Shown piece by piece: positions 1,687 through 64,000 of a DNA stretch of 64,000 nucleotides (position 1 is the stretch's first letter; each line of letters starts with the position of its first letter). The notes under the pieces were generated by a model. The model searched no databases. It was not told where the DNA came from and saw only the letters and a program-made list of their open reading frames with translations. The position numbers were made by a program, and so were the translations under genes. The DNA is from Pigmentiphaga sp. (GTDB lineage: Bacteria > Pseudomonadota > Gammaproteobacteria > Burkholderiales > Burkholderiaceae_B). The stretch lies in assembly GCA_023228945.1 (NCBI GenBank), contig JALOAI010000027.1, positions 542-64,541 of the forward strand, written 5' to 3'.

Positions 1687-2448
1687 TCAGCGGTCCTGGG
1701 TAGCGAGATGACGCTTGGCTGCCGAAAACTTCGCCCACAGCGTTCGCTCGCTGATTCCGGATTTGTCGCCGTAGTGGGCAACCAGCGCACTGATGACCGA
1801 TTCCAGCGTCTCGAAGGACGAATAGGGAACGCCATTGGGCGACTTGCCCAACAGCAGGGTCAGAAGGCCGCCAACGATGTTCAGGTAGGTGGACTCACTG
1901 CGGGCGCCCGGCATCCCGGAGCGCTTCTCGCGTTCCGCGCGTGCCTGGTGCTCCTGGCTGAGCGTCTGGAACTGGGCATAGAGCGCATCCCAGGCCTGCA
2001 CCCTGTCGGCAAGCTGGAGCTTCAACGCCTCGCGATCCATGATCAGTGCCTGCACGGCATCGACACTGACGGCCGGATGCAGGTGGCGCTCGAAGGCATC
2101 GAACAAAAAGGCCGGTCGCTGGTCGGGATAGAAACGAATCATCCAGGCCTTCAGGTCGACATGGCGGATCGTGAGGCCGGGGTCATCAAGCAAGGCGGGG
2201 TCGTTGCTCGTGATGCCATCCTTGCCGTAGGGAAGGTCGAGATGCACCAGTGCGTCGTAGATCCGTTCCGCGTTCAGGCGAAGCTGTGGCCAGCGCGCCA
2301 GTGCAGCGTGCTCCGGCAGCCGGTTCATCCCCTCGGCGACATCGAGGATACGGCGCTCGAAGCGTGACAGCCCCGCCCACTGGATGGCCGCCTCGATCGG
2401 ACGATAGAAGACCTTGGCTTGGGCGCCGGAAGAAGATGACTTTCTCAT
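1687..2448 (-). CDS. hypothetical 253-aa ICE-associated protein
   Basis: Clean ORF, co-directional with and immediately upstream of alpA-parA. No domain recognised by eye. It occupies the position bisR holds at the ICEclc end (from memory, unverified). Confidence 0.55.
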   Translation of the reverse strand: MRKSSSSGAQAKVFYRPIEAAIQWAGLSRFERRILDVAEGMNRLPEHAALARWPQLRLNAERIYDALVHLDLPYGKDGITSNDPALLDDPGLTIRHVDLKAWMIRFYPDQRPAFLFDAFERHLHPAVSVDAVQALIMDREALKLQLADRVQAWDALYAQFQTLSQEHQARAEREKRSGMPGARSESTYLNIVGGLLTLLLGKSPNGVPYSSFETLESVISALVAHYGDKSGISERTLWAKFSAAKRHLATQDR

Positions 2449-3093
2449 GGGCTACTCCCTGGTGAACGGGTTCAGGACATCGGCTTTTCTCGTGGTCTGG
2501 TCGACGCCATCCCACACCTTCGCGGCGCGGAGCGGTGGCGACTTGGCTTGTGGAAAGGTTGTAGTGACGGCGAATGGCTGCAATGCTCACCCCAGCAACC
2601 AGTCGATGTGGCACCTTCTCCACCAACACCGAGCCTCTGCGTGGCGGTATGCTTCAAGATGTTTCTCGCCCATGACGGGGAGGCTTGGTAGTGAGGTTTT
2701 GCTACAGATGCCATCGCGGCGAAAGACGCATTCAGTCTCTGCGCCCTCATGTCTGGGCATCACCCGCATGTCGGACGCCGATGGTCTTTCAGCAGACGCG
2801 GTTCGGGTGGCACCGGGCGCGGCGATGCCGCCGCGACGGGCAACGATGAAGCATCACGCCAGACGGTACGGGTCTTCTTTCAGATCAACAAAGAATGACG
2901 GGCGAATGTCATCGATTCGCCGGCAAGTCATAGAGCGGCAAGCGTTCCATTGCGGGCGGGGTCAATGCCGAATGGCTGCGATTCAGCACGAAGCGCGGGG
3001 CGCGGCCCGCGAACCCGGCGGCGGAACGCCGAGACGCTGGGCGGTTTGCCTTGCATTCGCTCATTAATTCAATAAATGTTGTAATATCGAACT

Positions 3094-3417
3094 ATGAAAG
3101 AAGATCAAGCCGTTTGCGCCCTGAGTGCCCTGGCCCATGCCCAGCGCCTGCGCGTGTTCCGCGCCCTGGTCATCGCCGGCCCCGAAGGGCGGACGCCCAG
3201 CGTGCTGGCCGAGCAACTGGACGTGGCCCGCAACACGCTGTCCTTTCACCTGAAGGAGCTGGCCCATGCCGGCCTCGTCACCATCGAGCAGCAGGGCCGC
3301 AACCTCATCTATCGCGCCGACTTTTTCCAGATGAACGAACTGCTCGGCTACCTGACCGAACACTGCTGCCAGGGCGGCGTGTGCGAGGTCACCGAATCCT
3401 CCCACTGCGACTGCTGA
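3094..3417 (+). CDS. arsR: ArsR-family arsenic-responsive repressor
   Basis: LSALAHAQRLRVFRALV...LSFHLKELAHAGLV HTH, with a Cys-rich C-terminus (HCCQGGVCEV...HCDC). First gene of the ars operon. Confidence 0.9.
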   Translation: MKEDQAVCALSALAHAQRLRVFRALVIAGPEGRTPSVLAEQLDVARNTLSFHLKELAHAGLVTIEQQGRNLIYRADFFQMNELLGYLTEHCCQGGVCEVTESSHCDC

Positions 3418-3421
3418 TGCC

Positions 3422-3919
3422 ATGACCACCGACACCACCTACAACGCACTGTTCATCTGCACGGGCAACTCGGCCCGTTCGATCCTCGCCGAAGGCATCC
3501 TCAACGGACTGGGCAAGGGGCGCTTTCACGCGTACTCGGCGGGCAGCCACCCCAAGGGAGAGGTGCATCCGCTGGCACTCGCTACGCTGGAGCGGCTGCA
3601 CATGCCGACGGCAGGCTACCGCAGCAAGAGCTGGGACGAGTTCGTGGCACCGGGCGCTCCGGTATTCGATTTCATCTTCACCGTCTGCGACAACGCCGCC
3701 GGCGAGGCGTGCCCGCTCTGGCCCGGCAAGCCGGTGTCCGCTCATTGGGGCGTGCCCGATCCCGCAGCGGTCGAAGGCTCCCAAGAGCAACAAGTCAAGG
3801 CCTTCAAGGACGCCGCATTGACCCTGCGCCGCCGCATCGAGCTGTTCCTGTCGCTGCCGCTGCAGCGCCTGGACGCCATGTCCTTGCAGCACGAACTGCG
3901 CGACATCGGCAAGCAGTGA
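3422..3919 (+). CDS. arsC: arsenate reductase, LMW-PTPase (thioredoxin-coupled) type
   Basis: The N-terminal sequence ALFICTGNSARSILAEG is the CX5R phosphatase P-loop. Confidence 0.9.
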   Translation: MTTDTTYNALFICTGNSARSILAEGILNGLGKGRFHAYSAGSHPKGEVHPLALATLERLHMPTAGYRSKSWDEFVAPGAPVFDFIFTVCDNAAGEACPLWPGKPVSAHWGVPDPAAVEGSQEQQVKAFKDAALTLRRRIELFLSLPLQRLDAMSLQHELRDIGKQ

Positions 3920-3926
3920 GGCGCCC

Positions 3927-5012
3927 ATGACCGCAGCGACTGAAACGGCCCGCTCCATGCCGGCCACCCCGACCATGAGTGTGTTCGAACGCTATCTGAC
4001 GGTGTGGGTTCTCCTGTGCATCGTTGTTGGCATTGCGCTGGGCCAATTCGCGTCCGGCGTGTTCCAGGCCATCGGCCATATGGAAGTGGCCCAGGTCAAC
4101 CTGCCGGTGGGCCTGCTGATCTGGGTCATGATCATTCCCATGCTGCTCAAGGTGGACTTCGGCGCGCTGGGCCAGGTCAAGCAGCACTGGCGTGGCATCG
4201 GCGTCACGCTGTTCATCAATTGGGCGGTCAAGCCGTTCTCAATGGCGCTGCTGGCGTGGGTCTTCATCCGCCACGTCTTCGCCGATGCGCTGCCCGCCGA
4301 CCAGCTCGACAGCTATGTCGCCGGCCTGATACTGCTGGCCGCCGCGCCCTGCACGGCCATGGTCTTCGTCTGGAGCCGGCTCACGGGCGGCGATCCGGTG
4401 TTCACGCTGTCGCAGGTGGCGCTGAACGACACCATCATGGTGTTCGCCTTTGCCCCCATCGTCGGCCTGCTGCTGGGCCTGTCGGCCATCACCGTGCCGT
4501 GGGATACGCTGCTGGTGTCGGTGGCGCTCTACATCGTCATCCCCGTCATTCTCGCGCAGGTCTGGCGTCGCGCCTTACTGCGGCGAGGCCAGGCCGCGTT
4601 CGATCGCGCCCTGGAGCGTATCGGCCCACTGTCCATCGCGGCGCTGCTGCTCACGCTGGTGCTGTTGTTCGCCTTCCAGGGCCAGGCCATACTGCAGCAG
4701 CCGCTGGTCATCGCCATGCTGGCCGTGCCGATCCTCATCCAGGTGTTCTTCAACTCCGGGCTGGCCTACTGGCTCAATCGCAAGGTGGGTGAGAAGCACA
4801 ACATCGCCTGTCCTTCGGCACTGATCGGCGCGTCCAACTTCTTCGAGCTGGCCGTGGCGGCAGCTATCAGCCTGTTCGGCTTCCAGTCAGGCGCAGCGCT
4901 GGCCACCGTGGTCGGCGTGCTGATCGAAGTGCCCGTCATGCTGCTGGTCGTGCGTGTCGTCAACCGGTCTCGCGGCTGGTACGAAGGCGACCCGAACCCA
5001 TCAACCCGATAA
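3927..5012 (+). CDS. acr3: ACR3-family arsenite efflux permease
   Basis: SVFERYLTVWVLLCIVVGIALG..., multi-TM protein, ACR3 family hallmark. The start could be an internal Met (M11 or M17). Confidence 0.9.
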   Translation: MTAATETARSMPATPTMSVFERYLTVWVLLCIVVGIALGQFASGVFQAIGHMEVAQVNLPVGLLIWVMIIPMLLKVDFGALGQVKQHWRGIGVTLFINWAVKPFSMALLAWVFIRHVFADALPADQLDSYVAGLILLAAAPCTAMVFVWSRLTGGDPVFTLSQVALNDTIMVFAFAPIVGLLLGLSAITVPWDTLLVSVALYIVIPVILAQVWRRALLRRGQAAFDRALERIGPLSIAALLLTLVLLFAFQGQAILQQPLVIAMLAVPILIQVFFNSGLAYWLNRKVGEKHNIACPSALIGASNFFELAVAAAISLFGFQSGAALATVVGVLIEVPVMLLVVRVVNRSRGWYEGDPNPSTR

Positions 5013-5025
5013 CCACGACATGCCC

Positions 5026-5448
5026 ATGAGCACCATCACGATCTACCACAATCCCGCCTGCGGCACGTCGCGCAACACGCTGGCGCTGATCCGCAACAGC
5101 GGCGAAGAGCCCGCGGTTATCGAGTACCTGAAGACGCCACCCGATCGCGCCACGCTGGTCAAGCTGCTGGCCGATGCGGGCCTTGGCGTGCGCAACGTGC
5201 TGCGCGAAAAAGGCACCCCCTATGCCGAACTCGGCCTGGGCGATCCGAAGTGGACGGATGAGCAGCTGCTCAATTTCATCGAGCAGCACCCCATTCTCAT
5301 CAACCGACCCATCGTGGTCACGCCGCTGGGCACGCGCCTGTGCCGCCCTTCGGAAACAGTACTGGACATCCTGCCGCAGCCCCAGCGCGGCGCGTTCAAC
5401 AAGGAAGACGGTGAGCCGGTGATCGACGCGGAGGGCCGCCGTGTCTGA
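5026..5448 (+). CDS. arsC: arsenate reductase, glutaredoxin-coupled (E. coli ArsC type)
   Basis: [26 protein letters not shown]...[23 protein letters not shown] is near-colinear with E. coli ArsC. The start was chosen at the internal ATG (5026) of track ORF 4954..5448. Confidence 0.9.
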
Positions 5449-6163
5449 AGCGCGACTTGACCTGCCCAACATCGACACAACGCTGTTTCAGGAACCGGAT
5501 ATAGCGCGGCTGCTGCCGCCCGAGCGCGGCAGCCATGCACCGCGCTTTCTGCTGCTCTATGGCTCGCTGCGGGAACGCTCATACAGCCGACTTTCCGCCG
5601 AGGAAGCCGCGCGCATCCTGCGCGCGCTCGGCGGCGAGACGCGCATGTTCAACCCCTCCGGCCTGCCGCTGGTGGATGATGCGCCGGGTGATCACCCCAA
5701 GGTCCAGGAACTGCATGCGCTCACGCAATGGGCCGAAGGCATGGTGTGGTGCTCGCCCGAGCGCCACGGCGCCATGACCGGCCTGATGAAGACCCAAATC
5801 GACTGGATTCCACTGTCGGTCGGCGCGGTGCGCCCGACCCAGGGCAAGACGCTGGCCGTGATGCAGGTCTCGGGCGGCTCGCAGTCCTTCAACGCCGTGA
5901 ACCAGATGCGCGTGCTGGGCCGTTGGATGCGCATGCTGACCATCCCCAACCAGTCCTCGGTTGCCAAGGCGTACCAGGAGTTCGACGAGGGCGGGCGCAT
6001 GAAGCCCTCGGCCTACTACGACCGCATCGTGGACGTGATGGAGGAGCTGATGAAGTTCACACTGCTCACGCGCGACGCGGCGCCGTACCTGGTGGATCGC
6101 TACAGCGAGCGCAAGGAGAGCGCCGAGGCGCTGTCCTTGCGCATGAAGCAAAGGGCTATTTGA
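5441..6163 (+). CDS. arsH: ArsH NADPH-dependent FMN reductase
   Basis: [18 protein letters not shown]...[25 protein letters not shown] start overlaps the arsC stop by 8 nt. Confidence 0.9.
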
Positions 6164-6725
6164 TGGGAGTGCCCAGCACCTCAGAGCGCAGCAGCGCCTG
6201 GCAGTTTTTCTATGGTTTTCCTGCGGTTGGGGCTGGCCAGCATCGCCAGCCGTACAAGCGCTCTCCGCTCATGACGACGAGAACGCCGTGCTACGGTGCA
6301 GGGAACTGAAACACCGGGCTCGTCCTGCACACACTGCACACCCTCGGCTTTCGGCGAAAGAGAAGCACGAGGCCCACAAGGGATGGAGGCGTCAGCGTGC
6401 AAAGCCGAATGGAGGGCCGATCATGTTCGCCTCGTCGAATACGAAGGAGCACAACGCGCCGAACACCTGACGTTTTCCAGATGAAATCGCTGCCGATCTG
6501 GAGGACGTTGGTATGGCGTACGCCCCAAACATCGGAGCAGCGAAACACAGTCTCGGCCCACAGGCGCATCTGAACATGACCCTGGTGGCTGTGCATGGAC
6601 GTTGCTGGGCGATGGCAGACGATCCCGGGTTGCCGGGCACGTGGGGCTGGTACATAATCTGGTCTAATTCCGTGGCGCTCACGGAAGAAACCCGTTATCA
6701 ATCAACGGGTTGAGTGCGGCGTGAT

Positions 6726-49731: not shown

Positions 49732-49893
49732 GGCGTATCCTCGGGTCCAGACGGGGTTGAAGGCAGAGCTGCGCGGCCGAGTGTAGGAAGCGAGGCAGAA
49801 AAACAAAAGACAAAAATCTAGGGGTATCGATAAAATTATTTATTCACCCTGGTCATGCGGTGTCACAGATGCGGGCAAGGCCCGGGAGGGTCC

Positions 49894-50829: not shown

Positions 50830-50845
50830 ATCGCCGCGACCTGCT

Positions 50846-51337
50846 TTAGTCGGTGTCCGTCGCCGGCTGGCCCGCGTAGCGGCCGAGATCGTCGAGCAGG
50901 CGGATCAGGTTATTCCCGCCAATGGCATCGGCCATCTCCTGCTGGGCCAGCGACACCGCCTCGCCGAAGGCGTCCAGCCACGCGAGGCCGCCCGGCGTGA
51001 AACGTACGATACGCACGCGCCTATCGGAAGGGTCGGCCACCCGCTCCACCAGGCCGAGCAGCACACATTGGTCGATGAGTTCCGTCATCGCGGCATTGGT
51101 CATCGCGGCACGGCGCGCCAATTCTGTGATGCGGGTACCGTCGAGATCGAGATGGCGCGTGAGGTTCACATGCGAGCGCCGCGTATGCGAGTGGCCCGCG
51201 GCGCTCATCAGTTCCATGACCCGTTCTTCGAACCGGTGTAGCGCGTTGCTGAGCGCCCGGCCGGGGTTGTGCGTACGCCAGCCGTAGGGCGGCGCATCGA
51301 GGGTGGCCGCCAGCGGGGAGTTTTGGCTTGCGTTCAT
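50846..51337 (-). CDS. MarR-family transcriptional regulator
   Basis: LTRHLDLDGTRITELARRAAMTNAAMTELIDQCVLLGLVERVADPSDRRVRIVRFTPGG is a winged helix. Only the last 163 codons of track ORF 50846..51703 are credited. Confidence 0.8.
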   Translation of the reverse strand: MNASQNSPLAATLDAPPYGWRTHNPGRALSNALHRFEERVMELMSAAGHSHTRRSHVNLTRHLDLDGTRITELARRAAMTNAAMTELIDQCVLLGLVERVADPSDRRVRIVRFTPGGLAWLDAFGEAVSLAQQEMADAIGGNNLIRLLDDLGRYAGQPATDTD

Positions 51338-51389
51338 GAATATGCTTTGGTAGCCTAAGTAAATCCACTTAACCCAATAAGGATAGCGG

Positions 51390-53147: not shown

Positions 53148-53160
53148 CCAGGAGAGCACG

Positions 53161-54009
53161 ATGATCAATCTCGACCACCACACCATTACCGAAGCCGTGC
53201 TGGCGCGCCAGGCGGGCATGGCCGACCCTCGCCTGCGCGAGATCCTGGACAGCCTGGTGAAGCACCTGCACGCGTTTGCGCGCGAGGTGCATCTCACCGA
53301 GGCGGAATGGTTCCAGGGCATCGAGTTCCTCACCCGCTGTGGGCACATCACCGACGACAAACGCCAGGAGTTCATCCTGCTCTCGGACGTGCTGGGTCTC
53401 TCGATGCTCACGGTGGCGCAGAACCACGACAAGCCGGCGGGCTGTACCGAGGCCACGGTGTTCGGGCCCTTTCATGTGGAAGGCGCGCCGCACTACGAAC
53501 TGGGCGCCGACATCGCCAACGGCGCCCAGGGCATCGCCTGCCTGGTGCGCGGCACGGTGCGCGGCATCGATGGCGAACCGGTGGCCAATGCGATGCTCGA
53601 CGTCTGGCAGTCCGACGAGGCGGGGCTCTACGACGTGCAGAAGCCCGGGCTGGAGCAGGCGCAGGCCAGAGGTATCCTGCATACCGATGCGCAGGGACGC
53701 TTCCATTTCCGTTCCATCCTGGCCGTGCCCTACGCCATTCCGCACGATGGCCCGGTGGGCGATCTGCTCACGGCAACGGGCCGCCATCCCTGGCGGCCGG
53801 CGCACCTGCACTTCATGATCCAGGCGCCGGGCTACGAAACGCTGATCACCCACGTGTTTCGCCGTGACGATCCCTACCTGGAGGCCGACGCCGTCTTTGG
53901 CGTGCGCCAGTCGCTGATCGCCGACTGGCTGCCCCAGGAGGATGGCACTTATCTGGTGGAGTACGATTTCGTGCTCCATCCCCAGGGCGGCACGGCCAAA
54001 GCGGAGTGA
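53161..54009 (+). CDS. hydroxyquinol 1,2-dioxygenase (intradiol dioxygenase)
   Basis: GPFHVEGAP...VWQSDEAGLYD...GRFHFRSILAVPYAIPHDGPVG...GRHPWRPAHLHFMI. The intradiol Fe ligands Y,Y,H,H are in context. Confidence 0.85.
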   Translation: MINLDHHTITEAVLARQAGMADPRLREILDSLVKHLHAFAREVHLTEAEWFQGIEFLTRCGHITDDKRQEFILLSDVLGLSMLTVAQNHDKPAGCTEATVFGPFHVEGAPHYELGADIANGAQGIACLVRGTVRGIDGEPVANAMLDVWQSDEAGLYDVQKPGLEQAQARGILHTDAQGRFHFRSILAVPYAIPHDGPVGDLLTATGRHPWRPAHLHFMIQAPGYETLITHVFRRDDPYLEADAVFGVRQSLIADWLPQEDGTYLVEYDFVLHPQGGTAKAE

Positions 54010-54014
54010 GTCAG

Positions 54015-55088
54015 ATGAAGGACTTCATTTATCAAGGCCAGCCTTCGCGGGTGGTGTTTGGCGCCGGTTCGCTGGCCCACCTCGAGCGCGAGATCGAACG
54101 GCTGGGCGCGCGGCGCGCGCTGGTGCTCTCCACGCCCGGGCAGCGCGCGCAGGCCGAAGCGGTTGCCGAGCGACTGGGCGGGCGCGCCGCGGGCGTGTTT
54201 GCCCGCGCCGTGATGCACGTGCCGATCGAGACGGCCCGAGAGGCGCGTGAAGAGGCCCGCCGGCTGGGCGCCGATTGTGCAGTGGCCATCGGCGGCGGCT
54301 CAACCACTGGCCTGGGCAAGGCCATCGCGCTGGAGTCGGGTCTGCCCATCCTGGCGATCCCCACCACCTATGCCGGCAGTGAGATGACGCCGATCTTCGG
54401 CATCACCGAGGCGGGCCTGAAGAAGACCGGTCGCGACGCGCGGGTGCTGCCGCGCACGGTGATCTACGACCCGGAGCTGACGGTGGGCCTGCCGGTGGGG
54501 CTGAGCGTGACCAGCGGCATCAATGCCATCGCGCATGCCGCCGAGGGCCTGTATGCCCGCGATGGCAATCCGGTGATGGATCTCATGGCCGCCGAGGGCA
54601 TTCGCGCCCTGGCGCATGCGCTGCCGGCGATCCGCGCGCGCGGCGACGATCTCGAGGCTCGCGGCGCGGCTTTGTACGGCGCCTGGCTATGCGGCAGCGT
54701 GCTGGGCAATGTGGGCATGGCCCTGCACCACAAGTTGTGCCACACACTGGGCGGCAGCTTCGATCTGCCGCATGCCGACGTGCACACGGTGGTGCTGCCT
54801 CAGGCACTGGCCTTCAATGCCTCGGCGGCGCCCGATGCCATGGCGCGCATGGCCGAGGCGCTGGGCGCGGCGGGCCGCAGCGCGGCGGCGGCCGTCTTCG
54901 ACCTGGCGCGCGACAACGGCGCGCCCGTGGCGCTGCGTGAGCTCGGCATGCGCGAGGCCGACCTGGACCGCGCCGCCGAGATCGCGGTGAGCAATCCCTA
55001 CTGGAATCCGCGGCCCATCGGGGCGGAGCAGCGGGGAGAGATCCGGGCGTTGTTGCAGGATGCCTACGAGGGTGCGCGGCCGGCCTAA
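54015..55088 (+). CDS. maleylacetate reductase (iron-containing alcohol dehydrogenase fold)
   Basis: FIYQGQPSRVVFGAGS...AIGGGSTTGLGKAIA...IPTTYAGSEMT...HHKLCHTLGG. Confidence 0.85.
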   Translation: MKDFIYQGQPSRVVFGAGSLAHLEREIERLGARRALVLSTPGQRAQAEAVAERLGGRAAGVFARAVMHVPIETAREAREEARRLGADCAVAIGGGSTTGLGKAIALESGLPILAIPTTYAGSEMTPIFGITEAGLKKTGRDARVLPRTVIYDPELTVGLPVGLSVTSGINAIAHAAEGLYARDGNPVMDLMAAEGIRALAHALPAIRARGDDLEARGAALYGAWLCGSVLGNVGMALHHKLCHTLGGSFDLPHADVHTVVLPQALAFNASAAPDAMARMAEALGAAGRSAAAAVFDLARDNGAPVALRELGMREADLDRAAEIAVSNPYWNPRPIGAEQRGEIRALLQDAYEGARPA

Positions 55089-55222: not shown

Positions 55223-57616
55223 TCAGAACCGGCCAGTGACCGACAACAGAAAAGCCCGCGGCGGACCGTAGTAGCTATTGCCGGTGGTTGTGTAGTACGC
55301 CTTGTCGAACAGGTTATAGATATTCAACGAGGCCGAGAGCGAATCGTTGAAGTCATAGCGCGCGAGCAGATCCACCACGGCGTAGGCGGGCTGGGTGAAG
55401 GTGGCTTTGGCGGGGCCCAGGTTTTCCGTGAAGATCTTGCTTTGCCAGCGCACGCCGCCGCCCACGGTCAGGCCGTTGAGCACCTTGTTCAGCCGATAGG
55501 TGGTAAAGAGCTTGGCCATCGACTGCGGCACGTTGGTGACGATGCGCTTGCCTTCGCGGTCTTTGGTGCTGTTATGGGCGAAGCTGGCGGCGATTTCCCA
55601 GCCCGGCTGCAGCTGGCCCGACAATTCCACCTCGAAGCCCCGGGTGCGCGTGCCCGATTTTGCCTCGTAGGCTTGCGAGCCGTCGGGCGCGTAGGTGTCG
55701 GGAATCGCGATCGCTTTGTTGTTCTCGCGGATCTGATAAACGGCTGTGTTGAAATTGAGCTGGTTGTTGAAGAAGGCGGCCTTGAGGCCGGCTTCGTAGC
55801 TTTCGCCGCTCAAGGGGTCGATGTAGTCGCCGGTAATGGTCTTGAAGTTTTGCGGCGCGAAGATCGTGGTGTAGCTGGTATAGGCCGTCCAATGATCTGA
55901 CAAATCGTAAGTAATGGCCGCGTAGGGCACGAACTTGCGTTCGGCGCGCAGGATGCCGCTGTTGACGCCGGTATCGTAGCGATACGAAAGCTGGTCGCGA
56001 CGCCAGTCGACCCAGCGCGTGCCCACGATCACCGCCAGGGCGTCGGTGGGGCGCAGGCGCAGTGAGCCATACAGGCCGTTGTTGCGTTCGTCGATGCCGT
56101 GCTTGCCCACCGAGGGGTTGTCGGGCGGCGCGGGATAGCTGCCGTCCCAGGTGTAAATATCGGGGATCATCGGGTCCCAGCCGGCGTGTGTCCAATTGGT
56201 GTACGAGGGGCTGTCGTAACGGGTGCGCGACCAGTTGGCGCCGAAGGCGGCTTCGTGCTCGCGGCCGAACAGGGTGAACGAGCCGTTGGCGGTGAGGTTC
56301 AGCGCATCCTGTTTGGGCTTATAGACCCACCGGGTGGCCCAGATCTGGGCGCCCGCGCCGGTGAGGCGATCGGGCGTGCCTCCGGCATACCCGACCAGCT
56401 CATCCGAGTCGGTGATCGTATGGGCGGCGCTGAGCTTCAACTGCCAGTCGTTGAGCAGTTGGTGTTCCAGTTCGGCGAACATCGACGTCACGCGGCGGTG
56501 CGAGTAAGCCCAATCGGCCGCCGCGGAATCCGAGCGCGACCAGTACAGCCGTTCGCCGTCGGTGGCATAGGCCGGCAGACCGCCACGCGAATGACCGCTC
56601 AGGTCGTGGCGCTGGTGGCTGATCCCGCCGCGCAGCAGTGTGCGCGCGCCCAGATCGGCCTCGACCACGCCATAGAACACCTTGCGCTTGTCGTTGAAGC
56701 GATCGATATAGGAGTCGGAATCCTGCAGGGCCACCACCATGCGGCCACGTACCGAGCCCGATTCGTTGAGCGGCGTGGAGAGGTCCGCCAGGCCGCGCTT
56801 GTAGCGCCAGGAGCCGGCTTCGAGTGTGGCCGAGGCGCGAAAGTCGCGAAACGGCTTTTTGCGCACCATATTGATCGCGCCGCCCGGCGTGCCCACGCCG
56901 TTCATCATCCCCGAGGCGCCGCGCACGATTTCGACGCGATCGTACAGGCTCATGTCCTGGCTCTGGAAAATGCTGGAATAGGGGGACACCATCTTGACGC
57001 CATCGACCATGTAGGTGTCGATCGAGAAGCCCCGCGAATAGATCGGCGAACTATCGGAGCCGACGTTACCGCTTTGCGTTACCACCAACCCCGGCGTCTG
57101 TGCGGCCACGTCGGTCAACTGCGTCAGGTTCTGGTCTTTCATCCGCTGCTCGGTGATCACGCTGACCGACTGCGGCGTTTCGCGCAGGGACAAATCCAAG
57201 CCCGACGATAGCGAGCTGGGGCCGGTGGCGGTATAGGCGCCGCTGCCGTCGGTACGGGCGTCGCCCAGGCCTTGTACCACCACGGGCGCGAGCTGGGTGG
57301 CGTTATCACTGGCCGCGGCTCGCGAAAGCGAGACCCGGCTGCCATCACGCCGGAACTGGATGCCGGTGCCGGCCAGCAACCGCTGCAGCGCCTGATCCGC
57401 CGTGAGCTCGCCCGACAGCGCCGGGGCGCGGACGCCACGTACCGTTTCGGGAAGGTAGAGGATTTGCAGCGAGGCCTGCTCGCCCAATTGCAGCAAGGCG
57501 TTGTCCAAGGATTGGGCCGGCAGATCGATGCGGATGGCCGCGTCCTGCGCGCCGGCAAGGCCGGGTACGACGCTGAAGGCCATCGCCATTGCCAGGGCGA
57601 GAGCCTGGAGAGTCAT
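55223..57616 (-). CDS. TonB-dependent siderophore receptor with N-terminal signalling (STN) domain (FecA-type transducer)
   Basis: Signal peptide MTLQALALAMAMAFSVVPGLAGA. STN domain IDLPAQSLDNALLQLGEQASLQILY...LTADQALQRLLAGTG. Plug and barrel follow, ending in terminal ...LLSVTGRF. An alternative ATG is at 57676. Confidence 0.9.
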   Translation of the reverse strand: MTLQALALAMAMAFSVVPGLAGAQDAAIRIDLPAQSLDNALLQLGEQASLQILYLPETVRGVRAPALSGELTADQALQRLLAGTGIQFRRDGSRVSLSRAAASDNATQLAPVVVQGLGDARTDGSGAYTATGPSSLSSGLDLSLRETPQSVSVITEQRMKDQNLTQLTDVAAQTPGLVVTQSGNVGSDSSPIYSRGFSIDTYMVDGVKMVSPYSSIFQSQDMSLYDRVEIVRGASGMMNGVGTPGGAINMVRKKPFRDFRASATLEAGSWRYKRGLADLSTPLNESGSVRGRMVVALQDSDSYIDRFNDKRKVFYGVVEADLGARTLLRGGISHQRHDLSGHSRGGLPAYATDGERLYWSRSDSAAADWAYSHRRVTSMFAELEHQLLNDWQLKLSAAHTITDSDELVGYAGGTPDRLTGAGAQIWATRWVYKPKQDALNLTANGSFTLFGREHEAAFGANWSRTRYDSPSYTNWTHAGWDPMIPDIYTWDGSYPAPPDNPSVGKHGIDERNNGLYGSLRLRPTDALAVIVGTRWVDWRRDQLSYRYDTGVNSGILRAERKFVPYAAITYDLSDHWTAYTSYTTIFAPQNFKTITGDYIDPLSGESYEAGLKAAFFNNQLNFNTAVYQIRENNKAIAIPDTYAPDGSQAYEAKSGTRTRGFEVELSGQLQPGWEIAASFAHNSTKDREGKRIVTNVPQSMAKLFTTYRLNKVLNGLTVGGGVRWQSKIFTENLGPAKATFTQPAYAVVDLLARYDFNDSLSASLNIYNLFDKAYYTTTGNSYYGPPRAFLLSVTGRF

Positions 57617-57808
57617 CCGCGCGCGTCGTGCGTCTGATGGATGTGAGATATTGTCGATCACGTTATCGCCCACCATGAATACCTTATGAAAATGAGATCG
57701 GTTGGACGCACCAGCGCCCGGTTTCCGGGAGGCGCCGCGCGGCCCGGCTGGGTCCGACGGTCCTTCCGTCCTTCAAAAAGAAAGACGTCCGGGAAGGAAA
57801 TTTTCCGG

Positions 57809-57827
57809 AATGATTCTCAAAATCATT
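57809..57827. promoter_or_regulatory. Fur-box-like 7-1-7 palindrome upstream of the receptor gene
   Basis: AATGATTCTCAAAATCATT contains TGATTCT-C-AAAATCA. This matches 10/14 of the TGATAAT-N-ATTATCA consensus. Confidence 0.35.
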
Positions 57828-57855
57828 TTGAAACGAGATGTTGCTGAACGGCGGA

Positions 57856-58845
57856 TTAGCGTGGCGCCAGCGTTGCTCGGCCATCCAGGCCGCGGATCAC
57901 GACGATGGGCGCAATGAGGGGCAGAAGGTCGAGCGCGGCTTCGGGAGCGTCGATGCTCAGCGTGCCCGAGATACGCAGCCGGGCCAGGCCGGCGTCGGCT
58001 AGGCGCACCGGTTGGGGCAGGTAGCGATTGAGCTCGCTGGCCACTTGGCTTAGAGGCGTATCGCGGAACATCAGCCGGCCGCGTTGCCAGGCGGCGATGG
58101 ACTCGACGTGATCGGGGTAGGGCGGCACCACCCCTTCGGCTTTTGTGGCCACGGCGACTTGCCCCGCCGACACGACTTCTCGGCCGCGACGCCACCATGG
58201 GCCGGCGGAAAGCTTGACGGCGCCATCGGTGACGGCGACCTGCACGCTATCCGGGTCGTGGCGCACATTGAATCGGGTACCCATCACCCGCACACAGGCT
58301 TCTCCCGCCACCACGGTAAAGGGGCGCGCGGCGTCGGCATGCACCGAAAACAAGGCTTCGCCCGTTTGCAGCGTGGCAACCCGACCATTCTCGTAATAGG
58401 CGATCGTGGCTTCGCTGGCGGTATTCAGATCCAGCACGCTGCCATCGGGCAAGGTGATGCGGCGACGCTCGCCGCGGGCGGTGCTGAATCGGCCTGAAAA
58501 CTGCGGGGGCGCTTGCCAGGCTTGCCGTCCGGCCAGACCGGCGGCCAGGAGAGCGCAACCGGCCCCGGCGCCGATCAAGAGGCGGCGCCGGAGGTTACGG
58601 GCCGGCACGGCGCCTTCGTCGCGCCGCAGGATGGCCCGGGCATCCTCGAGCGACAAATGGTCGGTCAATTGCCAGATTTCCTGGAGCGCTTCGAACTGCC
58701 GCCGATGTTCGGGGGCGGCGGCCAGCCAGGCTTCGAGGGCGCGCTGTTCCGCCGGCCCGAACGGACCAAGTCGCTTCCTGGAGAACCAATCCACGGCCTG
58801 TTCCCGTATCGTCTGGGCGGCGTTGGCGGTGTCGGGATCGATCAT
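57856..58845 (-). CDS. fecR: FecR-family anti-sigma/sigma regulator
   Basis: REQAVDWFSRKR...EQRALEAWLAAAPEHRRQFEAL, a single TM (LLIGAGAGCALLAAGLAG), and a periplasmic FecR domain. Confidence 0.85.
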   Translation of the reverse strand: MIDPDTANAAQTIREQAVDWFSRKRLGPFGPAEQRALEAWLAAAPEHRRQFEALQEIWQLTDHLSLEDARAILRRDEGAVPARNLRRRLLIGAGAGCALLAAGLAGRQAWQAPPQFSGRFSTARGERRRITLPDGSVLDLNTASEATIAYYENGRVATLQTGEALFSVHADAARPFTVVAGEACVRVMGTRFNVRHDPDSVQVAVTDGAVKLSAGPWWRRGREVVSAGQVAVATKAEGVVPPYPDHVESIAAWQRGRLMFRDTPLSQVASELNRYLPQPVRLADAGLARLRISGTLSIDAPEAALDLLPLIAPIVVIRGLDGRATLAPR

Positions 58846-58920
58846 GGCGAAGATCCGGTGCGGGCTTGATGTTGGAGCGTTGCAGGGCGGCAGGGAGGGT
58901 CGACGGGAACTCGATCCGGA

Positions 58921-59427
58921 TCAAGGGGAGGCATGCTGTTGCAGCCGGTCGCGCAGGTGGTTCAAGGCACGCTTCATGTGTTTCTCCACCATGCTCGATG
59001 TGAGCCCCAGCCTCTGAGCGATTTCTTCCTGGGTGTAACCCTCGATCTTATTCCAGAGGAAGACCTGCTGGGATTTCAAAGGCAGCTCGGCGAGTGCCGC
59101 CTTCAGCGCCCGGGCCAACTGGTCCGCCCGCAGCGTGGCCTCGGGATCGCCGGTGCTGGGATGTTCTTCTTCCGCCAGCGTGTCGAGCGACAGGAAGTTG
59201 CCGCGGGCCTGCCGGCGGATCTCGCTCACCAGGCGGTTACGGGCGCAACGAAAAAGATAGGCTTTGCGATCGAGCACCGCGGCCGGATCGTTGGCGAGCA
59301 GATGCGCCATGGAATCCTGGGCGGCATCGCTGGCATCGTGGGCAAGCGGGTTGCCTCGCGCCCAGGTACCGATCAGTTCGCGATAATGGGCGAGCCAGCC
59401 TTTATCGAAAGGGCGGGGGCGGGACAT
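58921..59427 (-). CDS. fecI: ECF sigma-70 factor (FecI-like, iron-starvation type)
   Basis: Region 2 is DASDAAQDSMAHLL...YLFRCARNRLVSEIRR. Region 4 is YTQEEIAQRLGLTSSMVEKHMKRAL. Confidence 0.9.
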   Translation of the reverse strand: MSRPRPFDKGWLAHYRELIGTWARGNPLAHDASDAAQDSMAHLLANDPAAVLDRKAYLFRCARNRLVSEIRRQARGNFLSLDTLAEEEHPSTGDPEATLRADQLARALKAALAELPLKSQQVFLWNKIEGYTQEEIAQRLGLTSSMVEKHMKRALNHLRDRLQQHASP

Positions 59428-59584: not shown

Positions 59585-59914
59585 TTACTCCGTGCGCTCC
59601 CACATGACATCGACCTGGCGGGCCTGCGCCTTGCGCAGCATCTCCAGCAGCGGAAACGCGCGCTGGTCGAGGTCGACGTGCTGCCGCGCCTTGGCGGCTT
59701 CGTCGGGATCGTCTTCGTTGAAGCTGGCGGGCGGCGTGGCGGCGATGCGCGCCTCCAGTCGGGCGATGGCGTCGCCCAGTTGGTCCGCGGTGAAGACCCC
59801 GCGGACTGCGCTGGCGACCCCCGGACTTTTGCCGGCGGCCTCGAGCAGTGGTCGGGCATGGTTGCCAAGCATGAGGATCTCGGCCGCGGCCTTGGACCGA
59901 AACGTATAAAGCAT
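59585..59914 (-). CDS. DUF1840-family small protein
   Basis: MLYTFRSKAAAEILMLGNHARPLLEAAGK... matches the DUF1840 N-terminus as I recall it. Start at the internal ATG of track ORF 59585..59944. Confidence 0.65.
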   Translation of the reverse strand: MLYTFRSKAAAEILMLGNHARPLLEAAGKSPGVASAVRGVFTADQLGDAIARLEARIAATPPASFNEDDPDEAAKARQHVDLDQRAFPLLEMLRKAQARQVDVMWERTE

Positions 59915-60044
59915 GAGGCTCTCCTGCAATGATGAAGGGCTCATTCTCGCATTGCGCGGCTGAAACTGGATACCTGGAGGCGCGCTTCACGATGCCTGGG
60001 CTTGCGGCAAGCCAAACTGACGCTTTGAATGTCTGGAGTGGAAA

Positions 60045-63000
60045 ATGGGCCGAGAGGGCGGCGGGCCTATGGGTCGAAACGAGGCGCGCAAGGGCTTGCG
60101 GCGGCGGGCGCGGCGCAGGGTTGGCGCCGAGCGGAGCCGGGTGTGGGTGTCGGCGGCGTGGGCGGCGCGCATCAGGGCGGCAGGAGCGGTGGTGGTCGCC
60201 TTGGTCCTGCTGCTCGCATCCGCTGATGCCATGGAGCCGTCCGCGGCCGACTGGAGCTGTGGCCCTCCCGCCCTGGGCGCGCCATGCCCCCAGGGCGGGC
60301 CGGCCACCCTGCCCTTGGGCGACGGCACGCCCAGCGGCCTGGGCAATCCGGTCAGCTTGACCAACGGCCATAAATACCAGCGTGAAGTCGATTGGCATGC
60401 CTACGCCGGCGAGTTGGGGCTCGAGGTCGTGCGCCATTATCATTCCGCCGATCTCCGCGACACCGGGTTGGGGCGCGGCTGGCGGTTGTCGTACGACACC
60501 CGGCTCTATCCCGTTGGGCGCGGCTGGCAGATCGTCCAGGCCGATGGCTCCCGTCTCGTTTTTGCGCCGCCCGGCGCGCCGGGCGAATCTTGCCGGGCGG
60601 TGGGGGCCGACGCCGGCGAGCTCCGGCCGCAGCTCGATGGCGGCTATCTATGGCAATGGCCTACCGGGCGCCAGTTGCGGTTCAACGCCCAGGGCAGGCT
60701 GGTGGAGATCCGGACCGCCGGCGGTGCGGCGCTATCCCTGCACTACGGCGCAGTGCCCGGCCGCCATGACTTCGGCAGATTGTTGCGGGTGCGCGATCCG
60801 CACGGTCGCGAAATGCTCTTGCATTACCGCAACGATCGGCTGGCGGAAATCGAGCTGCCCGATGGCCGTTTGCAATACTGGCATACCGCCGCCCGCCAAC
60901 TGCGCGGGGTGGCTTATCCGTCGGGTCGCGCCCGTCTGTATGCCTACGAGGCTGGGCACCAGGGCGGGCAAGCGGGCGGCGAGCCCGATCTGGCCGGCGC
61001 GCGGATAACGGCTACCTGGTGGTGGGACCCAATGCAGGGGTTGCTGCCGCGCTGGGCCTGGAGCTACGACGAGCAGGGGCGCGTCGTGGCGGTGTTCGCG
61101 GGCGGCCGGCGGTCGGGCCGGCACGTGGCCTTGCATTATCCGGCGAGTGCCGAAGCCTGGCAGGTCGCCATCACCGCCGGCCCGGCAACGCATACCTGGA
61201 GGCCGCACGATCTCCGCCCGCCTCCGGCGGCCGACGCCGGGCTCCGGGGGATCGGCAAGCCCCGGCGGCTCTCCCTACCCAGCGTGGTGGCGGGGCGCCG
61301 CCGGTACCTGGAGTTCGATTGGAGCGGGCCAGCCGACTTCGCCGCCCATCGGCCCGGCCTGCCCTGGCGGGTGGTCGAAACCGGTTGGCGGCCGCCGGAT
61401 GCCTCCACTCCGGCCTTGCCGGTGCGGCGCGAATGGAGCTGGGAGCGCACCGCTCCCGCGCCGGCGCCGCCGCAGGGCGCCGAGGCGGGCACCGGCTGGC
61501 AACTGACGCGGCGCGGGCCGCCGGTTGCCGTGGGGCTTGGCGGCAAAGCCCGGGGCGCGATGGCGGGTGGGAACGGATGGCCCGGGCTACGGATATGGCG
61601 CGATGATCTCGGCGGCGTCTGGCGCTGGAGTAGCGCCGTGACCGGCCGGTTCGTGCGCGAACCCGTGGCACACGACGCGTCGGCCGAAGCGTGGCATTTT
61701 GCCAATAAAGATGTCTGGACATTCCACTTCGACGCTCACGGGCTGCTGCGGCAATGGCTGAGGCGTTCGGGGCAGGGGAGCGAAGATCGCGTGAACATCA
61801 TCCCGGCGCCGGGACGCCTGCGCATCGAGCACTCCCACGAAAACCAAGATTGGATCTTTCCGGCGGATGAGGCGGGATTGGCGCGGCGGCGGATCGAGCG
61901 GCCCGCCCTGAGCGGCGCCCCGGCCTGGCACTACGAAGAATCCTTCCGGCTCGACGCCGCCGGCCGCATCCTGAGCCACGAACTGCCGGAGGGCGGCCAA
62001 CTGGAGTATCTGCGCGACACCGAAGGAAGGCTGCGGCGCATCACTTGGCTGCCGCCGGCGGGACCGGCTCGCGTGCTGTACCAGCAGACGGCCACCGGCC
62101 TGCTCCTGGCCAACGGTAGCCGAGTGGGCAGCGTGTTCCAGGAAGGCCGTCTGGTCTTTCTGTGGCAAAGCCATCATGGGCGGCCGCTATTGGCGCACCG
62201 GCGAACCTACGATGCCGACGGAAGGCCGAGTCACGAATCGATCCGGGTGGCGGGAGGCGCGGCGATGCATCGCGGATTCGGCTACGACGCCGCCGGCCGG
62301 CTGGCGGTGGTGGCCACGCCCGGGGGCACCGAGTGGCGGGCCTGGGAAGCCTCGGGCGAGGCGCGCGCACGGCAAACGCGGGGTGAAGAACTCCGGCCTC
62401 CCGGCCGGAGCTTCTCCGCCACCCGCGAGGTGGACGGGGCTGACGCTTTGGCCCGTGGTCAAAGCGCCGGGGGCCTGGTAGCGCGCCGCGATCCCTCCGG
62501 CTTGCCACTGGAGGCGGACGGTTGGCGGCTGCGCTATGGGGCGGATCGCCGTCTGGCTGAAGCCGAACAGCCCGGCGGGCCCCGGGTTCGCTATTTTCGC
62601 AACGCGTTTGGCGAACTCATCGGTCGCGACGATGGTCAAGACATGCGTCAGATGCTGTACGTCGGCCACCAGCGGGTGGCGGAATGGGGTTGGCGGCGCG
62701 GCGCGTGGGGCGTGCTGCGCCGGCTGGTGCTGGCCGACGAGTTGCCCGTGGCCTGGATCGAATACGGGGCTGCCGATACCGGCCGCGGCGCCATGGCTCT
62801 GGCCGCGCAAGATGCCAGCCCCGTGGATCGCGGGCGCAAGGTACTGCCCGGTGGCTGGGTGCATGGCCGTCGCCAGCCGGATGGCCGAGGCGTCCCAGCC
62901 TCGGGGCCGGATCTGTTCACGCTGCATGCCGATGCCATGGGAATCCCCCTGGCGGCTACCGATGATGCCGGACGGCTGCGCTGGAGTGCCGACGTCGACG

Positions 63001-64000
63001 CGTGGGGCCGCCGGATCCGGAACCGTGGGGCGTTGGATCCGGCCCTGCGCCTGCCGGGGCAGTGGGCCGACCCTCTCACGGGCTGGCACGACAATTACCA
63101 GCGCACCTATCATCCGGAATGGGGTCATTATCTGGAGCCCGACCCGGCCGGACCGCCAGGTATCCTGGCACCCGGCATGGGCTCCGACACCGCCTACGGC
63201 TATGCCGGCCACCAGCCGCGCCGCTGGCTCGATCCCACCGGCCTGGTGCTGTTTGCCTTCGATGGCACGCTGCAATCGGCGGCCAGCGGCGCCAACGTCT
63301 ATCGATTGAGCCTTTGGTACCGCGACCAGGCCGCCATCGCCGCCGGCCTGCAATCCGCCTACTACGAAGCCGGGCCCGGCGGATGGCCCATGATCGATCT
63401 CGATGCCGCGGTGGGATGGTCCGCCGATCGCATCCTGCAAACCCAGTGGGATCGGTTGCTGCGGCATCTCAGCGCCTTCGAGGCCGCGCCGGATCCGGTG
63501 GCGCTCGATCTGCTCGGTTATTCGCGGGGAGCGGCCCTCGCCCGGCATTTCGCCAACCTCATCCTCGGCAAAGTGCGCCAAGGCCGCTTCTGGGACTGGG
63601 ACCATGAGCTGGGTACCGTCACGGCCTGCGTCGATACCCGCTTTCTCGGTCTATTCGATACGGTGGCGCAGTTCGGCGTGCTCGGGGCGCGCAACGATGT
63701 CTTCGACTTCACCGTCGATTCCGCCTGGCGCGGGGTGGCGCACGCCGTGGCGCTGCACGAACGGCGCAGTTTCTTCCCCCTGCTGTCCATCGACCAGATC
63801 GGGCAGGCCTGGCCCGAAGGGTGGGCGGAGCAGCCCTTCATCGGAGCGCATGGCGACATCGGCGGCGGGTTGCTGTTGCCTACCGACCTGGCGCCCGACG
63901 AAGCCGCCTTGTCCGACGTCAGCCTGCGCTGGATGGCGGAGCAGGCCGAGGCGGTCGGCCTATGGCTCGACCGTAACGGCGATCCGCTGGCCGCCGGCGC
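60045..64000 (+). CDS. Rhs-family (YD-repeat) polymorphic toxin with C-terminal DUF2235/Tle1-like lipase domain; 3' end beyond the window
   Basis: The frame (codon starts divisible by 3) is open from the TGA at 60018 to the window end. It is absent from the ORF track because it has no stop. The N-terminus is signal-like. GNPVSLTNGHKYQREVDW..GRGWRLSYD is an Rhs N-terminal motif. YD-type repeats include YDEQGRVVAV, LDAAGRILSHELPEGGQLEY, YDADGRP and YDAAGRLAVV. The core end is LPGQWADPLTGWHDNYQRTYHPEWGHYLEPDPAGP....WLDPTGL. After that come VLFAFDGT, GYSRGA, FDTVAQFG, HERRSFFP and GAHGDIGGG. Confidence 0.85.
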   Translation, partial: MGREGGGPMGRNEARKGLRRRARRRVGAERSRVWVSAAWAARIRAAGAVVVALVLLLASADAMEPSAADWSCGPPALGAPCPQGGPATLPLGDGTPSGLGNPVSLTNGHKYQREVDWHAYAGELGLEVVRHYHSADLRDTGLGRGWRLSYDTRLYPVGRGWQIVQADGSRLVFAPPGAPGESCRAVGADAGELRPQLDGGYLWQWPTGRQLRFNAQGRLVEIRTAGGAALSLHYGAVPGRHDFGRLLRVRDPHGREMLLHYRNDRLAEIELPDGRLQYWHTAARQLRGVAYPSGRARLYAYEAGHQGGQAGGEPDLAGARITATWWWDPMQGLLPRWAWSYDEQGRVVAVFAGGRRSGRHVALHYPASAEAWQVAITAGPATHTWRPHDLRPPPAADAGLRGIGKPRRLSLPSVVAGRRRYLEFDWSGPADFAAHRPGLPWRVVETGWRPPDASTPALPVRREWSWERTAPAPAPPQGAEAGTGWQLTRRGPPVAVGLGGKARGAMAGGNGWPGLRIWRDDLGGVWRWSSAVTGRFVREPVAHDASAEAWHFANKDVWTFHFDAHGLLRQWLRRSGQGSEDRVNIIPAPGRLRIEHSHENQDWIFPADEAGLARRRIERPALSGAPAWHYEESFRLDAAGRILSHELPEGGQLEYLRDTEGRLRRITWLPPAGPARVLYQQTATGLLLANGSRVGSVFQEGRLVFLWQSHHGRPLLAHRRTYDADGRPSHESIRVAGGAAMHRGFGYDAAGRLAVVATPGGTEWRAWEASGEARARQTRGEELRPPGRSFSATREVDGADALARGQSAGGLVARRDPSGLPLEADGWRLRYGADRRLAEAEQPGGPRVRYFRNAFGELIGRDDGQDMRQMLYVGHQRVAEWGWRRGAWGVLRRLVLADELPVAWIEYGAADTGRGAMALAAQDASPVDRGRKVLPGGWVHGRRQPDGRGVPASGPDLFTLHADAMGIPLAATDDAGRLRWSADVDAWGRRIRNRGALDPALRLPGQWADPLTGWHDNYQRTYHPEWGHYLEPDPAGPPGILAPGMGSDTAYGYAGHQPRRWLDPTGLVLFAFDGTLQSAASGANVYRLSLWYRDQAAIAAGLQSAYYEAGPGGWPMIDLDAAVGWSADRILQTQWDRLLRHLSAFEAAPDPVALDLLGYSRGAALARHFANLILGKVRQGRFWDWDHELGTVTACVDTRFLGLFDTVAQFGVLGARNDVFDFTVDSAWRGVAHAVALHERRSFFPLLSIDQIGQAWPEGWAEQPFIGAHGDIGGGLLLPTDLAPDEAALSDVSLRWMAEQAEAVGLWLDRNGDPLAAG

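Follow-up and report, generated by a model that had tools for sequence, protein, structure and literature searches.

Is a gene that joins an Rhs shell to a Tle1-like lipase necessarily an effector of a type VI secretion system (T6SS)? The question is raised by the right-hand end of a 64,000-nucleotide (nt) stretch of Pigmentiphaga sp. DNA (contig JALOAI010000027.1; the whole stretch is called the window below), where an initial annotation had placed an rhs gene ending in a DUF2235 domain and had viewed it within a type VI framework. To our knowledge, Rhs proteins have been studied almost only as carriers of T6SS or Tc-toxin cargo with swappable toxins and cognate immunity genes. The reading that we prefer, with a probability of roughly 0.7, is that the gene encodes a Sec-exported, self-cleaving Rhs protein that cages a Tle1-like lipase, and that it is a single-copy, vertically inherited orthologue in the Alcaligenaceae, neither a T6SS cargo nor a polymorphic toxin.

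Domain layout of the rhs-lipase gene

The annotated region turned out to be the 3′ third of a gene for a 1408-aa protein of Pigmentiphaga (Alcaligenaceae). The gene overruns the window, as had been noted, and the source contig shows its end 295 nt further on. We read the gene end from the JGI metagenome 3300015214, in which Ga0172382_10000639 (65,444 bp; our locus L001) comprises the window plus 1.4 kb more; there, the full gene occupies 6589..2363 on the minus strand. An identical 1408-aa protein is present in NCBI (P0028 in our set) under the name 'MAG: DUF2235 domain-containing protein [Pigmentiphaga sp.]', where MAG denotes a metagenome-assembled genome. The reading frame contains no stop codon from 60021 up to the window end, and the GC content at third codon positions (GC3) of this open reading frame (ORF), 0.81, is typical of real genes in a window of 65% GC; together, the two are well beyond chance. 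The start is uncertain, with ATG 60045, ATG 60069 (the one called in the JGI record) and GTG 60141 as candidates. Translating the frame that contains 63051 reproduced the peptides quoted in the initial annotation, namely LPGQWADPLTGWHDNYQRTYHPEWGHYLEPDPAGP...YGYAGHQPRRWLDPTGL, VLFAFDGTLQS, LLGYSRGAALARHF, FLGLFDTVAQFG, HAVALHERRSFFP and FIGAHGDIGGG, and the serine codon at 63522-63524 indeed reads tcg.

From the N-terminus onwards, the protein consists of a putative Sec-type signal peptide, a Cys pair, a DUF6531 domain, a YD-repeat Rhs shell, a core ending in DPTGL, and a 349-aa DUF2235 serine hydrolase, with Pfam matches to PF20148 (DUF6531), PF05593 (RHS_repeat), PF03527 (RHS) and PF09994 (T6SS_Tle1-like_cat). 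Residues of the hydrolase are numbered within the cargo and compared with Tle1 of enteroaggregative Escherichia coli (EAEC), as follows:

60069..64000 and beyond the window end, plus strand: rhs-DUF2235 gene, 1408 aa in full, with its stop at window-equivalent 64295
60069..60230, plus strand: signal-peptide-like N-terminus with an Arg-rich n-region, the hydrophobic core AAGAVVVALVLLLA and, as predicted from its sequence, a putative signal-peptidase site between SADA and MEP
60258..60287, plus strand: conserved Cys pair C64..C73 (CGPPALGAPC), just after the leader
60342..60563, plus strand: DUF6531 domain, the N-terminal shell element (PF20148, E 2.9e-15)
60564..62996, plus strand: YD/RHS-repeat shell (PF05593, E 6.5e-15, 55.5 bits against a cutoff of 22; TIGR01643, E 5.4e-11)
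62997..63245, plus strand: Rhs-associated core, ending in DPTGL (63231-63245) and carrying the protease Asp pair D1025 and D1055
63141-63143 (gac), plus strand: D1025 (in EPDP), aspartate of the predicted self-cleaving protease
63231-63233 (gat), plus strand: D1055 (in DPTGL), second aspartate of the predicted self-cleaving protease
63246..64000, plus strand: DUF2235/Tle1-like alpha/beta-hydrolase cargo, first 251 of 349 residues, with the rest off the window
63261..63269, plus strand: DGT motif, cargo residues 6-8, in the first strand of the hydrolase
63522..63524, plus strand: nucleophile Ser93, in GYSRG, aligning to S197 of EAEC Tle1 (6SJL_D)
63657..63659, plus strand: triad Asp138, in LFDTV, aligning to D245 of EAEC Tle1
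63849..63851, plus strand: triad His202, in GAHGDIGGG, aligning to H310 of EAEC Tle1

The presence of a DUF2235 domain with a GxSxG serine was borne out by profile search, by alignment of the Ser-Asp-His residues and by a Tle1-like structure model. Scanned alone, the C-terminal part matches PF09994 at E 1.7e-24 (87.1 bits, against a gathering cutoff of 27). The whole cargo after DPTGL has 349 aa, a mass of 37.97 kDa (37,968 Da) and an isoelectric point (pI) of 5.2, and includes a family-conserved C-terminal extension of ~115 aa that lies off the window. In a sequence search of Protein Data Bank (PDB) chains, EAEC Tle1 (6SJL_D) was matched at E 1.5e-8; its residues S197, D245 and H310 reportedly form the catalytic triad (attributed to Flaugnatti et al., 2016), a numbering that our literature search did not confirm. 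Ser93, Asp138 and His202 are invariant in 76/76 Rhs-fused homologues. The DGT motif shows similar conservation in these homologues (D in 76/76, G in 75/76 and T in 75/76) and, going by what is generally known of alpha/beta-hydrolases, would have a role in the oxyanion hole. An AlphaFold2 (AF2) model of the 250 cargo residues in the window reached a predicted local distance difference test score (pLDDT) of 84.3 and a predicted template modelling score (pTM) of 0.89, and its top Foldseek match was Tle1 of Pseudomonas aeruginosa (4O5P, E 5.2e-9, template modelling (TM) score 0.69 on the query), followed by EAEC Tle1 (6SJL/6SKI) and TleB (9J3F). The toxicity of P. aeruginosa Tle1 depends on its Ser-Asp-His triad (bioRxiv 10.64898/2025.12.24.696360), and by analogy the cargo would, like Tle1 enzymes, act as a hydrolase on the acyl esters in membrane phospholipids.

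The Rhs core with its DPxGL end was likewise recovered by profile search. TIGR03696 (Rhs_assc_core, NCBIfam; E 2.1e-12, 47.4 bits against a cutoff of 32.5) covers residues 985-1067, numbered in the ORF counted from 60045, and ends exactly at DPTGL, at nt 63245. The hydrolase therefore begins with the very next codon after the predicted self-cleavage site, just as the initial annotation had it. D1025 and D1055 align to D1369 and D1391 of Tse15 (chains 8UY4/8UXT), the positions mutated (D1369N, D1391N) in the cleavage-dead Tse15 structure according to the PDB title of 8UXT, and both are invariant in 26/26 aligned homologues. An AF2 model of the mature shell (1005 aa) consists nearly entirely of beta-hairpins (pLDDT 79.6, pTM 0.61), and its best Foldseek matches are Rhs shells, with Tse5 (8CP6, E 4.9e-37) ahead of RhsA (7Q97) and Tse15 (8UXT). 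At the other end of the shell, the NPVSLTNGHK segment of DUF6531 sits where T6SS Rhs proteins have PVxxxxGE, their N-terminal cleavage motif (bioRxiv 10.1101/2024.02.26.582050). His replaces the Glu of this motif here; among the homologues, the position is occupied by N in 49, E in 8 and H in 3. We also observed that the shell (60231-63245) is strongly basic, with a pI of 9.8, and the cargo (63246-64000 and beyond) acidic (pI 5.2); solved T6SS Rhs cores have been described as negative inside and out, and the charge relationship may be inverted in this protein.

In ~60 species, the orthologues all start with a short, hydrophobic leader that terminates at an AxA-like site, and essentially all full-length homologues, small or large, share this leader-type N-terminus. 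From its sequence, the putative signal peptide would carry the protein across the inner membrane. A Cx6-11C pair lies upstream of an NP[VIL] motif in 62/67 full-length homologues, and C64 and C73 possibly form a periplasmic disulfide.

The initial annotation took the combination of an Rhs shell with the Tle1 fold to be uncharacterised, a view that did not survive a look at the literature and the databases, the latter including the identical NCBI protein. DUF2235 was catalogued in 2012 as Tox-ABhydrolase-1 of RHS polymorphic toxins, e.g. Tmz1t_2699 of Thauera sp. (Zhang et al., 2012; PMC3482391), and the table entry for this domain gives RHS repeats, 'T2SS, T6SS' trafficking (T2SS, type II secretion system) and no immunity family (PMC3482391). 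A scan with one genome per species found 506 relatives, and locus counts were taken on the best 80; in 76 of these 80 loci, [LIVM]LFAFDGT comes immediately after DPxG[LM]. When all 1.84 billion cluster representatives (50% identity) were scanned with HMMER, 326 gave matches at E <= 1e-10; among the best 150 of them, ~103 have a length of 900 aa or more and are matched at their C-terminus. The precomputed Pfam set PF20148 + PF05593 + PF25023 + PF03527 + PF09994 occurs in at least 55 protein clusters, and some orthologues have the UniRef title 'Phospholipase effector Tle1 domain-containing protein'. Given the 2012 listing and these counts, the Rhs-DUF2235 architecture is both described and common, and adds little by itself. 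Our literature searches turned up neither experiments nor structures for an Rhs-DUF2235 protein and, in the literature on signal-peptide Rhs proteins and DUF6531, no description of an Alcaligenaceae rhs-lipase clade. It is this conserved Alcaligenaceae copy that is less ordinary, in that it has a putative signal peptide for secretion but neither a link to type VI secretion nor an immunity gene.

Type VI linkage and immunity genes

No match to PAAR was found in the rhs-lipase protein with Pfam or NCBIfam. Among the 20 largest or nearest window proteins, which we scanned against Pfam, there was no T6SS family, VgrG included; all 20 are metabolic, transport or regulatory proteins. Across ~65 syntenic loci, neither vgrG nor an Eag/DUF1795 chaperone gene nor any other T6SS gene was found beside rhs-lipase. 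Together with the leader-type N-terminus, these results speak against the type VI framing of the initial annotation, and the evidence says that the protein is not a T6SS cargo. One could still picture an Rhs cage that rides on a VgrG spike and delivers a Tle1 lipase into the periplasm of rivals, with its immunity gene out of view: the Pfam family of the cargo is named after T6SS Tle1, the closest solved structures are T6SS effectors for the cargo and T6SS Rhs proteins for the shell, and the genome was inspected over 64 kb only. We nevertheless regard such an effector as very improbable, because a hydrophobic leader with an AxA-like site stands in place of PAAR or prePAAR, the catalytic Glu of PVxxxxGE is replaced, the syntenic loci and the 20 window proteins hold no T6SS neighbour, the recovered gene end is not followed by an immunity ORF, and in three species the same slot is filled by just a putative signal peptide and a lipase.

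An immunity gene had been expected downstream, beyond the window. With the 3′ end of rhs-lipase recovered, the next gene on the same strand proved to be argS, 190 nt downstream, and the gap between them contains no ORF of at least 40 aa on the coding strand; hence, no immunity gene follows. On its other side, rhs-lipase has the following neighbour:

59585..59944, minus strand: DUF1840 gene, divergent left-hand neighbour (PF08895, E 1e-28)

We considered DUF1840 as an immunity protein and rejected it, since without a signal peptide it is unlikely to be a periplasmic one. Extra DNA between rhs and argS in two loci, L009 and L053, was rejected as well: the genes there are unrelated and on the opposite strand, resembling, from ORF translations alone, an acyl-CoA dehydrogenase and a methyltransferase, the latter in L053. 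In L053 (11078-12290), the inserted opposite-strand gene is followed by a short duplicate of the rhs 3′ end (ORF 12072-12290), an arrangement resembling an insertion footprint.

Sister Rhs-DUF2235 genes are found in further betaproteobacteria, among them Thauera, Thiobacillus, Roseateles and others. They encode proteins of 1700-1900 aa with a putative signal peptide and are not syntenic. A gene for a conserved predicted lipoprotein of 180-220 aa (lipobox L-x-G-C) starts 10-30 nt after their stops, at these positions and also in L071, L073 and L074:

L069, 11076-11675: predicted lipoprotein gene
L070, 11078-11677: predicted lipoprotein gene
L075, 11091-11633: predicted lipoprotein gene
L076, 11091-11633: predicted lipoprotein gene
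L077, 11128-11760: predicted lipoprotein gene
L079, 11104-11763: predicted lipoprotein gene

No Pfam family was found for these lipoproteins. By their position and localisation signal, they are candidates for a family of immunity proteins against DUF2235 toxins. We found 91 relatives in the protein database, and none of those with a source name is from the Alcaligenaceae; moreover, tblastn with the sister lipoproteins gave no match, either in the window or in the Alcaligenaceae loci (L001-L068). The Alcaligenaceae clade has thus lost, or never had, a linked immunity gene, at least within 10 kb. The Tox-ABhydrolase-1 RHS toxins (e.g. Tmz1t_2699 of Thauera sp. MZ1T) are among the closest known systems and likewise have RHS repeats followed by a C-terminal DUF2235, and the Thauera homologues L075 and L076 likewise have a DPLGL/ILFAFDGT junction and a signal-peptide N-terminus. 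However, whereas the Thauera type is 1700-1900 aa long, not syntenic and followed within 10-30 nt by the lipoprotein gene, the Alcaligenaceae type is 1150-1400 aa long, sits in the argS slot and has no lipoprotein gene.

The Alcaligenaceae clade in the argS slot

A single-copy rhs-lipase gene in the slot between DUF1840 and argS is carried by ~65 Alcaligenaceae species. The order of divergent DUF1840 gene, rhs-lipase and argS is kept in L002-L068 and L072 wherever the flank suffices; in L002-L068, the DUF1840 gene adjoins the rhs gene except where a contig end cuts it off, and the gap between rhs and argS is ~50-250 nt across the clade. The hosts of these loci are Pigmentiphaga, Pusillimonas, Pollutimonas, Castellaniella, Candidimonas, Kerstersia and Alcaligenes, and further Eoetvoesiella, Bordetella sputigena and Alcaligenaceae/Burkholderiaceae MAGs. 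Complete genomes with the gene include those of Neopusillimonas aromaticivorans (CP128233) and Pusillimonas sp. T7-7.

We compared pairwise identities of the cargo with those of the arginyl-tRNA synthetase (ArgRS) in 57 species and found a Mantel r of 0.86, a value reached by 0/999 permutations. In the same species, mean pairwise identity is 0.76 for ArgRS, 0.51 for the cargo and 0.39 for the shell, and in 99.8% of pairs the cargo is the more conserved part. Throughout this clade, DUF2235 is the only cargo. Since the cargo is better conserved than the shell and co-diverges with ArgRS, the pattern points to a fixed cargo that is inherited vertically and kept by purifying selection, and it indicates that the Alcaligenaceae gene does not behave as a polymorphic toxin; the pattern is reversed. 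The higher GC content of the rhs gene (0.69-0.73 vs 0.65) had suggested horizontal transfer, which we rejected given the synteny and the co-divergence. Elsewhere, in Delftia, Lautropia and others, Rhs proteins with a signal peptide and DUF6531 (P0079, P0085-P0092) carry DUF6765 (PF20551), not DUF2235. Because DUF6765 replaces DUF2235 in these sister proteins, the shell family as a whole is polymorphic, while the Alcaligenaceae clade is not.

In ~60 species, the ORF is intact and 1150-1400 aa long. Three genomes (L058:8850-10097, L063:9656-10972 and L072:1143-2477) have lost the entire Rhs shell by an in-frame deletion, so that the slot between DUF1840 and argS encodes just a putative signal peptide, ~90 aa of linker and the lipase; P0011, P0014 and P0015 in the database share this shell-less layout, and P0143 is another natural variant that lacks the shell. 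In two others, L017:9914-11011 and L028:8591-10987, the shell ORF is disrupted, with ORFs of 365 and 798 aa, which suggests either pseudogenisation or sequencing frameshifts. These two disrupted shells, and the lack of the immunity gene that sister clades possess, are what one might expect if an old polymorphic-toxin gene had been stranded by argS and were now decaying or inactive. We find this scarcely credible, however, because the intact ORF has been retained in so many species, the Ser, Asp and His residues and both cleavage aspartates are invariant, and GC3 is as in expressed genes.

Proposed mechanism and known systems

If the protein is, as we favour, a Sec-exported and self-cleaving cage for a lipase, the signal peptide would first move it across the inner membrane, as its sequence and conservation suggest. 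The YD shell would fold round the C-terminal domain, and D1025 and D1055 would cut after DPTGL, a step that we infer from the family motif and the invariance of both residues. The freed 38-kDa lipase would stay sequestered, and this would explain the absence of a neighbouring immunity gene. Release could take place by a T2SS, by vesicles or by lysis, whereupon Ser93-Asp138-His202 would hydrolyse acyl esters of phospholipids, the presumed substrate, in a presumed target.

Several points weigh against this sequence of events. With the annotated ATG, the n-region is ~36 aa, which is unusually long; as the true start is also uncertain, an uncleaved membrane anchor is possible instead of a cleaved leader. 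The shell model matches solved Rhs shells at E 1e-37 to 1e-31, yet with TM-scores of just 0.2-0.43, and with such low scores a closed cage is no more than a prediction. The cargo would have a volume of ~46,000 cubic angstroms (37,968 Da x 1.21), and a solved T6SS Rhs core of similar length has ~25,000 cubic angstroms (bioRxiv 10.1101/2024.02.26.582050). Because the cargo exceeds the solved core in volume, full enclosure is doubtful, and the shell may enclose the cargo only partly; the largest Rhs toxin listed in the same study is 38 kDa. Our view covers 64 kb, and a T6SS, a T2SS or an immunity gene elsewhere in the genome is possible. Finally, the enzyme may not be self-toxic at all, and the persistence of variants with neither shell nor immunity gene weakens the step in which the cage replaces immunity.

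On account of the cargo volume and of the shell-less variants without immunity, we give some weight to another explanation, which we still judge unlikely: a resident envelope or secreted enzyme of the Alcaligenaceae, serving e.g. lipid scavenging or outer-membrane or vesicle remodelling, with the shell as an export or folding container or an adhesin-like carrier. Such an enzyme would fit the fixed slot by argS and the co-divergence with ArgRS, as well as the greater conservation of the cargo than of the shell, which is the opposite of what polymorphic toxins show. It would also fit the strictly conserved triad, the lack of an immunity gene, and the persistence of variants that consist of signal peptide and lipase and do without one. 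On the other hand, the characterised relatives of the hydrolase family are all toxins, the sister Rhs-DUF2235 genes are tightly linked to a lipoprotein gene in the manner typical of effector-immunity pairs, a shell of ~1000 aa would be costly for an ordinary enzyme, and the disrupted shells in L017 and L028 show that the gene is dispensable.

Our preferred reading of a Sec-exported, caged lipase can be extended, tentatively and with considerable doubt, to a domesticated Rhs cage: a formerly polymorphic, immunity-linked toxin may have become fixed, vertically inherited and Sec-exported, with the shell, and not an immunity protein, protecting the producer. If so, the shell-less derivatives would show the effect of losing the container, and the clade would provide a first example, among Gram-negative bacteria, of an Rhs container that depends on neither an immunity gene nor a T6SS; its membrane-acting cargo would be at the limit of what Rhs shells can hold. 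The loci form a comparative system with three states, namely ~65 orthologues with a fixed lipase and no immunity gene, sisters with a lipoprotein, and three natural shell deletions, and such a system could be used to test the shell as a substitute for immunity and the maximum cargo size. We consider the immunity-less Sec-type clade and its shell-less derivatives modestly interesting, and no surprise for specialists.

Three further known systems resemble the protein in part. T6SS Rhs effectors (Tse5 8CP6, RhsA 7Q97, Tse15 8UXT and Rhs1 7PQ5) have the YD shell, the DPxGL core and the Asp pair in common with it. They differ in having PAAR- or VgrG-binding N-termini, PVxxxxGE, small and mostly cytoplasm-acting toxins and immunity genes, whereas here we find a putative signal peptide, no Glu in the motif, a 38-kDa predicted membrane-lipid enzyme and no immunity gene. 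The Gram-positive WapA proteins, which are Sec-exported Rhs/YD proteins, share with the Alcaligenaceae protein the order of N-terminal signal peptide, YD shell and C-terminal toxin; one of them is the WapA of Streptococcus suis (PMC12704120). WapA is polymorphic, has adjacent immunity genes and acts from the cell wall; here, in contrast, a Gram-negative host carries a fixed cargo without an adjacent immunity gene. Lastly, Tle1 (P. aeruginosa PA3290, 4O5P; EAEC 6SJL/6SKI) has the catalytic fold, the Pfam family and the aligned Ser, Asp and His in common with the cargo. Tle1 effectors, however, are stand-alone proteins of 560-742 aa loaded on VgrG, while the domain described here, of 349 aa, continues an Rhs core and is next to neither a VgrG nor a Tli gene. 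In P. aeruginosa, Tle1 possesses D2-D4 as additional domains for membrane anchoring, and its immunity proteins are the Tli1 lipoproteins (bioRxiv 10.64898/2025.12.24.696360). The cargo is a minimal version of Tle1 that covers ~1/4 of 4O5P (TM-score 0.26 on the target) and is without the membrane-anchoring domains.

Two further gene groups were observed to the left of the locus. At 55223-59427, just upstream of the DUF1840/rhs pair, the window has genes for an extracytoplasmic function (ECF) sigma factor, a FecR-like anti-sigma factor and a TonB-dependent receptor with an STN domain, i.e. a typical cell-surface signalling iron-uptake module. Genes at 49855-55088 encode a LysR regulator, a flavin adenine dinucleotide (FAD) aromatic-ring hydroxylase, an intradiol dioxygenase of the catechol/hydroxyquinol type and a protein of the iron-containing alcohol-dehydrogenase family, and resemble a cluster for the degradation of aromatic compounds.

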